Shown: positions 38,364 to 43,405 of the stretch, piece after piece
Numbering within the stretch: position 1 is the first letter of the stretch
How the letters are laid out: each line of letters starts with the position of its first letter
Source: a phage
Length of the DNA stretch: 64,000 nucleotides
Strand: one strand, 5' to 3'
Sequence record: PZ509022.1
The notes under the pieces: model-generated
What the model saw: only the letters and a program-made list of their open reading frames with translations
What the model was told of the DNA's origin: nothing
Databases searched by the model: none
Made by a program: the position numbers and the translations under genes

Positions 38364-38780
38364 TTAAATGTAAATATTTTTGCCGTAATACTTATACCAG
38401 TGTGGCTTCATTAAAATTTTTTCATCGAGTCGTTGTTGACTCAACTTAATAGCTGATTTGCATGGATTATAATCATTTTTCCATTCTACTGGAATATCGC
38501 TGATGTCAGGAACTTCAGTATCTTTTATACTGAACCCGCGTTTTAAGCATTCCGTTATAATGTCCGATTGACGCTTTCGCAAAAATTCTAACTTATCGTA
38601 AAAGAAAGTAACATGACCAGAACCTAAAATAAATTTAGAAGATATTTTAAAATCTTTAACACGCTTACCATTTGCCACATGCTTACGAACTATACCAAAA
38701 ACACGCGGCAATTCACGGTATTCTGCGATTAAATGTTGATCAGCAAGTTCAGATACTAAAGTCAAATTAATACGAGTCAT
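38364..38780 (-). CDS. denV: endonuclease V, pyrimidine-dimer DNA glycosylase (138 aa)
   Basis: 138 aa, N-terminal [17 protein letters not shown] as in T4 DenV. Confidence 0.9.
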
Positions 38781-38839: not shown

Positions 38840-39370
<531 letters not shown>

Positions 39371-39826
39371 TTAAAAGAGGCTGTTCATTATTCGGTAAAG
39401 TGAAGGACCCATCACATATTGCCACTGAGTACGAGGAATAAGAGCAAAAGCATCCATCTCTGGAATCATAACGCCATCTTTATTTTCAAAATAAGACTCG
39501 CAATGGCAATTTCTAAACATCTCATGCTCTACTGGAATCGTATAATAAAATAACTGTAAGTCTTTATTACTAGAATATTTAAATACACCTAGGTCTTCTA
39601 GAAGGTCTGGATTATAATTGCTAAAACCGGTCTCTTCTAAGCATTCTCTTTTTGCAGCTTCCAGTGCATTCAAATCAGAACTTTCTACACGTCCCTTTGG
39701 AATATCCCAGCGATGTGCCATCATTCCAGGCTTACGAGAACCAGTAACCCGACCCATAAATAAATCTTTATCTTCTGTCATGAAGATAATACCAGCTGAT
39801 AATGTTTTCATTTTAATTTCCTGCAT
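39371..39826 (-). CDS. nudE: Nudix hydrolase (151 aa)
   Basis: Nudix box GRVESSDLNALEAAKRECLEETGF. Confidence 0.8.
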   Translation of the reverse strand: MQEIKMKTLSAGIIFMTEDKDLFMGRVTGSRKPGMMAHRWDIPKGRVESSDLNALEAAKRECLEETGFSNYNPDLLEDLGVFKYSSNKDLQLFYYTIPVEHEMFRNCHCESYFENKDGVMIPEMDAFALIPRTQWQYVMGPSLYRIMNSLF

Positions 39827-40296
39827 TCAGTGATAAAGTTATTTAAATTTTGAGTATATTTCTTTTCATCAAAAATCTTTTGTTGTCTGCGTAGCCGCCA
39901 TGGCATTTCAATGAACGTGTACCATATCCCAGATAATATTGATGCTGTAAAAATATTAACAAGTATGGTTAAAAGAATCCAATCTCCTATTCTGTCCATT
40001 GGATTTTTTATAAAAAAGTAAAATACGAATGATGACACAGGAAGACTAATGATATACCACAGAATCATAATCTTATCTGTGAACCATTCAGCATTCGTTA
40101 ACTTAGCACGACCATTATGAATACACACGAATTTATCATCTGTTACAGTAGATGGCTTAACTGCTTGATATCCCATTCTAAACTCCCTAATTAATCGTTT
40201 CTTTGTATCTTCAGAACAGCCGCTCCAGTCAACTCTATCAACTGAAATGCCATCGTCCCCATCATCTAAATCATACCAGCGAGTTTTTAAAATCAT
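39808..40296 (-). CDS. 2-TM membrane protein, paralog family member (162 aa)
   Basis: two TM segments; C-terminal NNFITECRKLK. Confidence 0.5.
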   Translation of the reverse strand: MILKTRWYDLDDGDDGISVDRVDWSGCSEDTKKRLIREFRMGYQAVKPSTVTDDKFVCIHNGRAKLTNAEWFTDKIMILWYIISLPVSSFVFYFFIKNPMDRIGDWILLTILVNIFTASILSGIWYTFIEMPWRLRRQQKIFDEKKYTQNLNNFITECRKLK

Positions 40297-40655
40297 TTAA
40301 TTTTCCTACAATCACTCACAAACTCTTCCATTGATTCTTTTTCAATATAAGACATATAGCTATTATATTCCTTTAATTGTATTTTGTAATCCTTTTTTCT
40401 TTGCCAATTTATTTTAAAATTATCATAATGAAAATATAACATGGTACCAAAGAATGAAAATAATGAAATCGCTATAGTAAAACGAAGTTCACTCCAAACC
40501 TCTGTTATAATTACTGTGCCGTCGATATTTAAAATAAAACAGTCAATTAACAATCCAATAAGACTACCCGCAAGAGCTGTAAATACTGATACAGCAAGAA
40601 TTAATAGTGCCTCAGGAAACGAATATTTGACTTTATTTAGTTTTGGCTTTTGCAT
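40293..40655 (-). CDS. 2-TM membrane protein, paralog family member (120 aa)
   Basis: two TM segments; C-terminal EEFVSDCRKIK. Confidence 0.5.
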   Translation of the reverse strand: MQKPKLNKVKYSFPEALLILAVSVFTALAGSLIGLLIDCFILNIDGTVIITEVWSELRFTIAISLFSFFGTMLYFHYDNFKINWQRKKDYKIQLKEYNSYMSYIEKESMEEFVSDCRKIK

Positions 40656-41050
40656 CGTGATTCCTTAACAAATTTCATAATTTCATCAAATTCATACATA
40701 TCTAGCTTAAGCTGGTGTTCCTTTTTAATCTTTTTACACTGAGCTTTCCAATCACGTACACGTTTACGATAATGTCTTCCTTGATACCAGTATCCTACCC
40801 AATTTACGGGTACTAATAAAAGTGGAACTATTAATGGAAGAATTAGCATTAACACAAGTATTTCGCCAGAATCAATATCAGTCATAACATCTAAAACACC
40901 TCCAATAATCAATAGAATTACAAATGATATGAGTATAACAGGACCTATTAACACATCAGTAGAAATTATCTGACGCTTTGGTTCATACTTCACAGGTTTA
41001 CTTGGAAGGTATAGTGATGGTTTTGACATATTCTCTACATTCCTTAACAA
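40637..41050 (-). CDS. 2-TM membrane protein, paralog family member (137 aa)
   Basis: two TM segments; C-terminal MKFVKESRCKSQN. Confidence 0.5.
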   Translation of the reverse strand: MLRNVENMSKPSLYLPSKPVKYEPKRQIISTDVLIGPVILISFVILLIIGGVLDVMTDIDSGEILVLMLILPLIVPLLLVPVNWVGYWYQGRHYRKRVRDWKAQCKKIKKEHQLKLDMYEFDEIMKFVKESRCKSQN

Positions 41051-41612
41051 ATTTTTCTAGTAATAAATCACTTTCAAAATTGGGATTTTCTACAAATTTA
41101 TCAAAAAGATCATCAACAATAGTTAAGATATTCTTTTTACTAAGAATACGTTTATTTTCATGCTTCGTTTCAGAATCAACTATAAGAGTAAAGAAATATT
41201 TCTTGCCCTGAAATTTTACAGTAGTATCAATATAAAATAAATTTGACTTTTGTAAATTACGTTTAAACCATGCGTCACTTAAACTATAAACACCGAGATA
41301 ATCAAAATCGTCGTTTAAATAACAAACCGTCCATTCAGGAGAAATGAAATCAGTAAATTCAACATCAAAATCACACGTCAATGAATGAATTGATTCAATA
41401 CTGTTAATGAGTATTCCAGGACGTATTAAAGACTTTTTACCTCTAGAAAATCTTCCGGAAAGGCTTTCATCAGTTTCATATGAAGACCCCCAATAGTAAT
41501 TACGTCCTTCTGCCATGCGTTTAAGAGCATTTAGTAATTGGTCTGGAACATCAACCTGTCTTTGGAACTCTTCAAACATTGAATTGAAATCACTTTGCAT
41601 TTTCATTTTCAT
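40998..41612 (-). CDS. hypothetical protein (204 aa)
   Basis: ORF track. Confidence 0.5.
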   Translation of the reverse strand: MKMKMQSDFNSMFEEFQRQVDVPDQLLNALKRMAEGRNYYWGSSYETDESLSGRFSRGKKSLIRPGILINSIESIHSLTCDFDVEFTDFISPEWTVCYLNDDFDYLGVYSLSDAWFKRNLQKSNLFYIDTTVKFQGKKYFFTLIVDSETKHENKRILSKKNILTIVDDLFDKFVENPNFESDLLLEKFVKECREYVKTITIPSK

Positions 41613-41631
41613 TCCTATTTACTCCAAGTAT

Positions 41632-41649
41632 AAGGGGCCGAAGCCCCTT
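41632..41649 (-). terminator. UUCG-loop hairpin aaggggc-cgaa-gcccctt
   Basis: inverted repeat. Confidence 0.5.
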
Positions 41650-41653
41650 ATCA

Positions 41654-42247
41654 TTATTTCAGAGAATTAATGTATTCCTGAACATCGGCAGAGGTAGTTT
41701 CAACCCCAGAAATATTACCGTTAAAGGTTTCAACTCGAGCAAGGGTATCTTCAATATCAACCTTAGTCAGTGCTGCAATTTCAACTACATCATCAGCAGT
41801 ACTAATTCCAAGGGCATTTGCTGCACGAGTTTCACGGATATATTCCAATTTAACCGCAAGTTCTTGACGAGCATCATCTAACTCAACTACTTTCTTGGCG
41901 ATTTCAATTCGCATTTCAGCATAACCGTCAGCCTTAGTAGTCAACTGCTCAGCTGTTCGACGATATAGTAAACCGAGTTTAGCATGCATTGTTACATCTT
42001 GGCCTTCGGAAAGAAGTTTACGAATTTCACGCTCTTTTGATTCGGCCTGTCGATTCTTTTCGATAACAAGTTCACGAATACGTTTTTCTTCGTTAATAGA
42101 TTTAACAGAAGCAGTTTTTAGATCTTTAATTTTATCAAGTAGTTTTGCTGCTGCAGCAGTATACTGTTCTTCGACAGATAGATTTTTAGCCATAGCAGAA
42201 CCAAGTTTAGTGCGAATAAACTCAACAATTTTCTTCAGTGTGTTCAT
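41654..42247 (-). CDS. hypothetical coiled-coil protein (197 aa)
   Basis: ORF track. Confidence 0.5.
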
Positions 42248-42841: not shown

Positions 42842-43405
42842 TTATTTACCTAGTTTACTTATTATAGCTTCTGCAGCAGCTTTTAGCTTAGATGCAGTGT
42901 TAATACGATTTTTAATTTCAGTATACGCATCGCCAAGAACATCAAGGCTATCAGAATAAACACTTACACTATTGCGTTCGCTATTTGAAATAGAACCTTT
43001 AGTTTTGCGGTCAAAATCGGTGTACACGTCTTGAAGATCGCGGGCTGCCTTCTTTGCATCATCCAATGCATCAAGAGCTTTATTCAAAGCATTAACGTAT
43101 TTTTTAGTGTCGAACATATTCTTAGAAATTTTAACAGGTGCGCGTTCAGGAGTAGCTAACACAGATTTAGGAACCTGAGCGCCAGATGCCAATTTCTTAG
43201 AAATTTTGAAAAATGCTTTATTGAATTTATTTTCTTGACTCATTGTAAAAGAACTATTATCGATGTTGTACATTTCAATAGCTTTAGCTTTCCACTTAAG
43301 AAAATCGCCGCGGTCTTTTGGGTCCAATTGGAAGAATACTTTAGTAAGATCTGCTTCAGATGGTAATTTTGCTGCTTCGGTTAAAAATTCGGCATAGGTT
43401 TTCAT
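42842..43405 (-). CDS. internal-protein-like, N-terminal capsid-targeting-like sequence MKTYAEFLTEA (187 aa)
   Basis: N-terminus resembles the T4 IP targeting peptide as I recall it (MKTYQEFIAEA); Glu-Ala junction consistent with prohead protease processing. Confidence 0.5.
   Translation of the reverse strand: MKTYAEFLTEAAKLPSEADLTKVFFQLDPKDRGDFLKWKAKAIEMYNIDNSSFTMSQENKFNKAFFKISKKLASGAQVPKSVLATPERAPVKISKNMFDTKKYVNALNKALDALDDAKKAARDLQDVYTDFDRKTKGSISNSERNSVSVYSDSLDVLGDAYTEIKNRINTASKLKAAAEAIISKLGK

Follow-up and report, generated by a model that had tools for sequence, protein, structure and literature searches.

Why should several small, adjacent proteins of a phage end in almost the same peptide, and what might such proteins, most of them apparently bound for the membrane, do beside the lysozyme gene? 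The question is raised by a stretch of phage DNA of 64,000 nucleotides (sequence record PZ509022.1; the whole of this stretch is hereafter called the window), in which an earlier note had pointed to three tandem open reading frames (ORFs) on the minus strand with two transmembrane (TM) helices each, a common Cys-Arg-Lys tail and a location next to the lysis genes. Homology and gene order identify the three as the orthologues of the T4 genes e.2, e.3 and e.4. The reading that we favour, with a probability of roughly 0.6, is that they encode membrane hairpin proteins whose tail, shared with the product of the neighbouring gene e.5, forms a helix in the protein while its DNA serves as the initiation region of the next gene and as a site of recombination, and that the genes have an early, dispensable accessory role and do not belong to lysis.

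The 2.3-kb stretch that carries the locus matches Escherichia phage WilhelmHis (Bas35, Tequatrovirus) at 100% identity and about 500 other T4-like genomes at 91–98%. Annotation and synteny give the minus-strand order denV, e, nudE, e.2, e.3, e.4, e.5 and e.6, of which the part from e to e.6 is also the synteny of T4 (coordinates in Table 1). The three ORFs match PHROG families over their full length (matches at the locus span E-values of 1e-58 to 1e-110); they are 82–90% identical to the T4 copies, with equal overlaps and an equal order between nudE and e.5, and 77–98% identical to the database members. In T4, e.2–e.4 have long carried the annotation 'conserved hypothetical, predicted membrane proteins', and since the genes are thus already known no new kind of system is added here. 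The stop-to-start overlaps described in the earlier note are present, at 19 nt between e.4 and e.3 and 4 nt (ATGA) between e.3 and e.2. They continue on both sides, with 32 nt between e.5 and e.4 and, provided that nudE begins at ATG 39811, 4 nt (ATGA) between e.2 and nudE; e.5, e.4, e.3, e.2 and nudE form a single block of five overlapping cistrons. One boundary has to be moved: the third ORF, which had been extended to 41050, is e.4 and initiates at ATG 41029 and not at TTG 41050, because every homologue opens MSKPSL.

What the proteins share is the tail. The C-terminal sequences quoted in the earlier note are present exactly, and profile comparison indicates that their likeness exceeds chance. 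Aligned on its phenylalanine the motif reads Φ(-3)-x-x-F-[IV]-x-[E/D/G]-[C/S/I]-[R/K], position -3 being hydrophobic in nearly all members, and the hydrophobic positions i, i+3, i+4 and i+7 fall on one face of an amphipathic helix. Pairwise BLASTP yields a single alignment, between the C-terminal 14 residues of e.2 and those of e.3 (E 0.005). With profiles that took in orthologues from other genera, hhalign aligns e.3 to e.4 over 42 columns, which is the entire tail after TM2 (E 4.5e-6), e.3 to e.2 over 19 columns (E 1.1e-5) and e.5 to e.3 over 17 columns (E 2.3e-4); the alignment of e.4 to e.2 over 39 columns (E 0.059) is not significant. Pattern scans agree: F[IV]x[DE][CS]R matches five times in the ORF segments of the window, four times at the C-termini of e.2, e.3, e.4 and e.5, and when the whole T4 genome (120,895 aa) is scanned in six frames the looser F[IV]x[DEG][CSI][RK] has six matches, four of the six being e.2–e.5 at 3–11 residues before the stop. 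As the motif was derived from these sequences, we take the scan counts as illustrative and hhalign as the independent test.

The signature is not quite the one that had been put forward. Similarity of the tails holds, yet its core is Φxx-F-[IV]-x-[ED]-[C/S/I]-R and not Cys-Arg-Lys, at whose positions e.4 has S/I-R-C or I-R-N. Because Ile or Ser substitutes in e.4, the cysteine probably serves packing, without a redox or metal role; a Cys-based metal site was considered and is unlikely for the same reason. Nor is the motif particular to the three membrane ORFs, for the soluble e.5 protein carries it too, and on this ground the tail is a C-terminal module common to four adjacent families and no membrane-family signature.

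The search in other T4-like phages that the earlier note had proposed was rewarded, the motif being kept across five genera of the Tevenvirinae, and in e.2 relatives from metagenomes, in proteins that, outside Tequatrovirus, are 23–53% identical overall. Mosigvirus has the tails FIMECREY (e.5), FVKEIRC (e.4) and FIKECRK-stop (e.3), Gaprivervirus VR7 has FIKEIR (e.4) and FIKECKS-stop (e.3), and Dhakavirus has FIKECRK-stop in an e.2-like protein of 195 aa, FIKECREY in an e.5-like protein and FIKECKS-stop in e.3; the e.2-like tail of Kanagawavirus reads FIKGCR. In each family alignment the F, E/C and R of the motif rank among the few invariant columns. A search with an e.2 profile hidden Markov model (HMM) through 1.84 billion representatives returned 15 proteins only, and the full-length matches all have the N-terminal domain of e.2, two TM helices and a tail end F-I-x-x-C-R; they are T4-like relatives of the same architecture and therefore give no outside clue to function. 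An exact-pattern scan of IMG/VR with the junction DNA TTYATTAARGAATGYMGNAA returned 34 loci and no additional gene family carrying the module, 4 of the 34 being real (relatives of e.2 or e.3) and the others chance matches in non-coding frames.

The products of e.2, e.3 and e.4 are predicted to be inner-membrane helical hairpins with both termini in the cytoplasm (N-in/C-in). Kyte–Doolittle profiles show two peaks in each of the three and none in e.5, which has no hydrophobic segment, and the orientation follows from the positive-inside rule and the distribution of Lys + Arg over N-terminus, loop and tail (13/2/9 in e.2, 4/0/10 in e.3 and 5/0/15 in e.4); prediction in this way bears out the two TM helices and basic cytoplasmic tail first described. 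The tails, of 33–50 residues, are predicted to be basic and helical. An AlphaFold2 model of e.4 built on 17 sequences (mean predicted local distance difference test, pLDDT, 67.6) is an all-helical hairpin without a globular domain. Its helices span residues 24-48, 54-108 and 111-128, of which the second would be TM2 extending into the cytoplasm and the third a separate end helix that holds the motif. Only e.2 has, in addition, a conserved N-terminal domain, with the pattern W..DDG..G....DW.GC....K..LI.E..M; e.3 and e.4 are without one.

Are the three ORFs then paralogues, as had been proposed? For e.3 and e.4 the sequences suggest that they probably are, as the two have in common the 42-column tail alignment, the same layout of hairpin segments and a start M-x-[KR]-P-x-L that, when followed by at least 50 open codons, occurs in the whole T4 genome only at these two genes. 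For e.2 the claim does not hold up, since e.2 shares with e.3 only the terminal ~18–19 residues and has its own N-terminal domain. The e.5 protein, soluble and otherwise unrelated, shares only ~17–18 tail residues. When e.2, e.3 and e.4 were tested as a single family, BLASTP and hhalign gave no significant similarity beyond the tails, the TM regions did not align in any comparison among the three, and the proteins fell into three separate PHROGs.

Whole-gene paralogy of all three could still be upheld by supposing serial duplication of an ancestor with two TM helices and divergence of everything but the tail beyond recognition. The long e.3/e.4 tail alignment and their unique start, the N-in/C-in layout in common with its similar segment lengths, a perfect 16-nt repeat, AAATTTGTTAAGGAAT, at two junctions and an in-frame e.4::e.2 fusion (described below), compatible with equivalent topologies, all fit such a history. 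We nonetheless lean against it and regard it as possible at best. PHROG families are themselves built by remote-homology clustering and still separate the three; the TM regions lack similarity and e.4 against e.2 stays at E 0.059. The 75-aa N-terminal domain of e.2 is absent elsewhere, and in Dhakavirus and Kanagawavirus the e.2-like gene adjoins nudE, at a distance from e.3 and e.4 and outside the block that holds e.5 and e.3. A tail of the same kind is borne by e.5, whose body is soluble and unrelated. The architectures are alike in e.3 and e.4, extended by the N-terminal domain in e.2 and reduced to a tail without any TM helix in e.5, and 'three tandem paralogues' should better be put as four adjacent families with a C-terminal module in common and probable paralogy between two of them.

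The four-family arrangement leaves the tail itself to be explained, and its DNA has a second use. Each junction in the window has motif codons that hold the Shine-Dalgarno sequence for the following cistron, with AAGGAA or AGGAAA 5–10 nt before the ATG, and this ATG overlaps or precedes the upstream stop. In the tails of e.4 and e.5 it is the K-E codons (AAG GAA) that supply the Shine-Dalgarno sequence, in those of e.2 and e.3 the R-K codons (AGG AAA). The likeness of the tails might accordingly be a mere by-product of nucleotide constraint (Shine-Dalgarno sequence, spacer and overlapping ATGA) and the peptide functionless: each copy of the motif in the window does overlap the initiation region of the next cistron, most copies contain one of the two hexamers, and the junction DNA is locally more alike than the peptides, as the perfect 16-nt repeat and a further repeat that runs past the ATG in a different frame illustrate. 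Several observations make this account improbable. The invariant residues F and I/V precede the Shine-Dalgarno sequence. The motif arginine is encoded by AGA, AGG, CGT, CGC and CGA, from both codon boxes, the cysteine by TGT or TGC and the phenylalanine by TTT or TTC. In Dhakavirus-type e.5 (tails FITECREY or FIAECREY) the motif has ACT, GCT or AAA as its third codon and AAGGAA is for this reason missing, yet F-I-x-E-C-R-E-Y is intact, and the gene after e.5 starts 20–40 nt further on with a Shine-Dalgarno sequence of its own, AAAGAGG. Finally, other overlapped junctions of T4 do not give the peptide. The five arginine codons, the persistence of the peptide after loss of the Shine-Dalgarno sequence and the position of F and I/V upstream of it argue that the motif is maintained by selection on the peptide itself. 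Both constraints act, and the simplest account of them is that the peptide is conserved and that its choice of codons was recruited for downstream initiation.

The same junction DNA appears to be the place where genes come and go. The two imperfect repeat copies that bracket e.2 align over ~61 nt, their similarity running past the ATG in different reading frames; in the part downstream of the ATG 15 of 19 positions match, a score that was reached by 6 of 2000 shuffles and by 23 of 2000 random 48-mers of the window. In RB33 and in an IMG/VR genome (L017) exactly e.2 is missing: the tail of e.3, reading ...GATTGTAGGAAA/TTAAAATGAAAACA across the join, is connected to nudE, the crossover lies inside AGGAAA and the hybrid tail is CRKLK. 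In the Tequatrovirus sequences examined, e.2 and e.3 alike have the ending CRK[LI]K-stop, an extension by two residues, whereas relatives from other genera end in CRK-stop, CKS-stop or otherwise, which suggests exchange between the copies. Records found by tblastn at at least 60% identity number ~448 for e.2, ~499 for e.3 and ~504 for e.4, and from these counts e.2 is absent from roughly one in ten Tequatrovirus records. The earlier note had named genes absent from or merged in close relatives with no phenotype as a case against its view, and such relatives do exist in part. Besides the RB33-like deletion, e.2, which is intact in the window at 162 aa, is split in T4, where an ORF of 102 aa is left together with a remnant of 53 codons that has kept the ending NNFITECRKLK, and in UFV05 an in-frame deletion removes e.3 and fuses residues 1–31 of e.4 to e.2 within TM1. 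Taken together the comparisons point to the repeated junction DNA as a site of homologous recombination at which whole cassettes are removed or added in frame.

An irregularity of another kind concerns e.3. Its codons W84-K89 (window 40390-40405, TGG CAA AGA AAA AAG GAT) are A-rich; RB33 (L002) has at the same site an A11 tract and a frameshift, with an annotated e.3 of 98 aa, and in further records and metagenome proteins (P0037-P0040, including LH2) e.3 is cut to 97 aa, P0038 ending in the same frame-shifted peptide. Either sequencing errors recur at this homopolymer or the site is truly slippery.

What might the proteins do? Searches of main texts in the literature for e.2–e.5 returned nothing, and supplementary tables alone were informative. 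One such table lists the RNAs of e.2–e.5 as early and places the proteins of e.4 and e.5 in an early, that of e.2 in a middle and that of e.3 in a late temporal class (PMC9697503 supplement); having been assigned classes, the proteins are apparently detected. In a supplementary table of T4 CRISPRi-ART results e.2–e.5 are all scored 'Not Fit', with prior essentiality listed as 'unknown' (PMC11879866 supplement), and we read 'Not Fit' as no fitness effect upon knock-down.

The functions at first proposed, superinfection exclusion, lysis timing or antagonism of membrane defences, find no connection to these genes in the families searched. Pfam at E<=1 gives no match to a holin or Imm family, no holin family is matched among the PHROGs, the probabilities that hhalign assigns to a match with T4 Imm are 2.9% and 0.4%, and PADLOC defence models give no match at E<=1. 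More generally, Pfam-A, NCBIfam and PADLOC have nothing above threshold for e.2–e.4, and a PDB sequence search, for which e.5 and the e.2 profile were the queries and e.3 and e.4 were not queried, gave nothing significant. The adjoining lysis gene, which had been offered as a functional clue, is a neighbour by chance: a lysis cassette does not exist in T4-type phages, the T4 holin gene t lies at 160221 and e at 66503, 94 kb apart, imm and sp lie elsewhere, and in Mosigvirus and Gaprivervirus e.3 and e.4 do not adjoin e. T4 t mutants fail to lyse, and imm and sp account for exclusion. Against all this, and against the early RNAs, a holin- or antiholin-like part in lysis timing or a part in superinfection exclusion is very improbable, even though small proteins with two TM helices, N-in/C-in topology and a charged C-terminal tail beside e do recall class II holins and T4 Imm, and the e.3 protein falls in the 'late' class of the proteomic table (PMC9697503 supplement).

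Names in the databases are no better guide. 'Sulfurtransferase' for e.3 and e.4 (in many NCBI records, e.g. P0002, P0107, P0120 and P0140) and 'DNA primase' for e.3 (in one record) are supported by no NCBIfam or Pfam model and for that reason seem to be annotation errors that have spread. Two other ideas, that RegA or RegB might recognise the junction RNA and that there might be a site for the gp21 protease (I-x-E), gained no support.

Beyond the architecture, conservation, dual coding and recombination events documented above, we infer an interaction of the tails and a physiological role. On the reading that we favour, the proteins of e.2–e.5 and nudE would be made early through coupled translation, and the shared helix would be a common element for docking or assembly on the cytoplasmic side of the inner membrane, by which the hairpins may bind one another, e.5 or one common partner. 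The module would be a dispensable accessory of the interaction with the host, with a value that depends on the strain or the defences of the host, and it would stand outside lysis. Several points weigh against this. The hhalign E-values rest on shallow profiles (Neff ~2), and the counts of the motif scans are partly circular. Confidence in the e.4 model is only moderate, and that of e.2, with a mean pLDDT of 49, is unusable and hence unfit for a fold search. Both the translational coupling, which we infer from the overlaps only, and the binding of the tail to any partner are steps of deduction. The peptide and nucleotide constraints coincide at most junctions, so that their relative weight is not fully separable in silico, and a knock-down without phenotype suits a conditional role and little or no function equally well.

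The argument can be carried further, and the tail pictured as a 'coding junction module' with three roles: a docking or assembly helix for e.2–e.5, the initiation region of the next cistron, and a DNA repeat at which T4-type phages could gain, lose or swap early genes whole and in frame while the coupling is preserved. In this full form the proposal is tentative and, in our judgement, rather doubtful; the limited literature and supplementary tables searched make no mention of a tail with such a triple role of peptide motif, initiation region and recombination repeat. What is added is modest, a testable handle on four T4 genes by way of a C-terminal helix motif of e.2–e.5 that recurs across genera, also provides the next gene with its ribosome-binding site and is the crossover point in the loss of e.2. 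If docking turned out to be what the tails have in common, this would be a first functional grouping for the e.2–e.5 block, and the block would be an example of overlapping peptide, translational and recombinational constraints shaping the hyperplastic regions of T4-type phages.

The related genera hold two further arrangements at this locus. Downstream of e.3, Mosigvirus, Gaprivervirus and Dhakavirus have a tandem series of small ORFs, three to five in number and 65–101 aa long (L004 3231-4025; L005 2851-4110; L009 2782-3072). All end in W-[VI]-[SA]-S-S-x-x-C before the stop, after which comes GGAA(A)nnnnATG, and they are a second tandem array of paralogues in which a conserved C-terminus borders directly on the ribosome-binding site that comes next; the window was found to hold no member of this array. 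The e.2-like gene of Dhakavirus and Kanagawavirus is coupled, by a TAATG or TGATG overlap, to an upstream gene for a conserved 228-aa protein that ends VYLEFPMEGW at its stop (L006 1719-2408; L007 722-1408; L008 1743-2429). The Tequatrovirus locus lacks this protein, which might work together with e.2.

The block and its surroundings have some further features. WilhelmHis and T4 annotate nudE from ATG 39826 (151 aa), an ATG without a Shine-Dalgarno sequence; ATG 39811 (39809-39811), the start annotated in RB33 (146 aa), has AGGAAA 6 nt upstream, inside the e.2 tail, and nudE likely starts there. The 5' edge of the e.5–nudE block is marked, between e.6 and e.5, by a stable hairpin on the minus strand, GGGGC-UUCG-GCCCC (window 41630-41651), with a UUCG tetraloop and without a T-run. 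It was the sole feature to stand out in a scan for promoters and terminators, which inside the block gave nothing above background (28 promoter-like matches in the region vs 24.8 expected). Further off, an ORF of 187 aa (window 42842-43405, minus strand) has the N-terminus MKTYAEFLTEAAK, which resembles MKTYQEFIAE, the N-terminal capsid-targeting sequence of the T4 internal proteins. T4 has ipII and ipIII between denV and e, whereas in the window e follows directly after denV, and the repertoire of internal proteins is therefore unlike that of T4.

Table 1. Genes, predicted segments, tail motifs, initiation signals and repeats of the e.2–e.5 locus; nucleotide positions refer to the window, residue numbers to the protein
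Feature	Position	Strand	Remarks
denV	38364-38780	minus	annotation, synteny
e	38840-39334	minus	lysozyme gene; annotation, synteny
nudE	39371..39811 (or to 39826)	minus	Nudix hydrolase; last cistron of the overlapped block
e.2 orthologue	39808..40296	minus	162 aa; phrog_2203, E 1.8e-77
e.3 orthologue	40293..40655	minus	120 aa; phrog_2330, E 2.2e-58
e.4 orthologue	40637..41029	minus	130 aa; phrog_2604, E 1.5e-70
e.5 orthologue	40998..41612	minus	204 aa
e.6	41654-42247	minus	
e.2 predicted segments	TM1 40009-40071; TM2 39910-39984		conserved N-terminal domain ~1-75 (predicted cytoplasmic); TM1 76-96; TM2 105-129; basic tail
e.3 predicted segments	TM1 40536-40610; TM2 40425-40487		TM1 16-40; TM2 57-77; 43-aa basic tail
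e.4 predicted segments	TM1 40889-40954; TM2 40790-40861		TM1 26-47; TM2 57-80; 50-aa basic tail, predicted helical
e.2 tail motif	39820..39837	minus	F-I-T-E-C-R
e.3 tail motif	40305..40322	minus	F-V-S-D-C-R
e.4 tail motif	40655..40672	minus	F-V-K-E-S-R
e.5 tail motif	41034..41051	minus	F-V-K-E-C-R, within KFVKECREY
e.2 tail codons			TGC AGG AAA; Shine-Dalgarno sequence for nudE
e.3 tail codons			TGT AGG AAA; Shine-Dalgarno sequence for e.2
e.4 tail codons			AAG GAA; Shine-Dalgarno sequence for e.3, whose ATG lies inside CGA TGC
e.5 tail codons			AAG GAA TGT AGA GAA, upstream of the e.4 ATG
Left imperfect direct repeat	40262..40322	minus	e.3 tail into e.2 start
Right imperfect direct repeat	39778..39837	minus	e.2 tail into nudE start
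Perfect 16-nt repeat, first copy	40660..40675	minus	AAATTTGTTAAGGAAT, e.4 tail
Perfect 16-nt repeat, second copy	41039..41054	minus	AAATTTGTTAAGGAAT, e.5 tail

How does this locus compare with known systems? T4 Imm, the superinfection immunity protein of 83 aa, is likewise a small, early inner-membrane protein with two TM helices from the same group of phages; it has, however, no sequence or profile similarity to the hairpin proteins described here, and neither a long basic helical tail nor the motif. Class II holins resemble e.2–e.4 in the hairpin of two TM helices, predicted for the latter to be N-in/C-in, and in the charged cytoplasmic C-terminus, but e.2–e.4 match no holin family and are transcribed early, and the holin of T4 is the unrelated t, encoded elsewhere. 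A parallel of another kind is offered by the promoter-early stem-loop (PeSL) repeats, which mediate modular gene shuffling in T4-type phages (PMC2839356, PMC4122927). As in the PeSL cassettes, short repeats stand at the boundaries in a hyperplastic region where whole genes come or go, and close relatives show precise loss between repeat copies, here of e.2 in RB33 and L017. The junctions in the window gave no signal above background for a PeSL-type promoter or stem-loop terminator, and their repeat is itself coding, made up of a C-terminal peptide, a Shine-Dalgarno sequence and a start, whereas PeSL is an intergenic promoter–terminator unit. If the tail does combine all three roles, it would be a coding-sequence counterpart of these intergenic shuffling cassettes.

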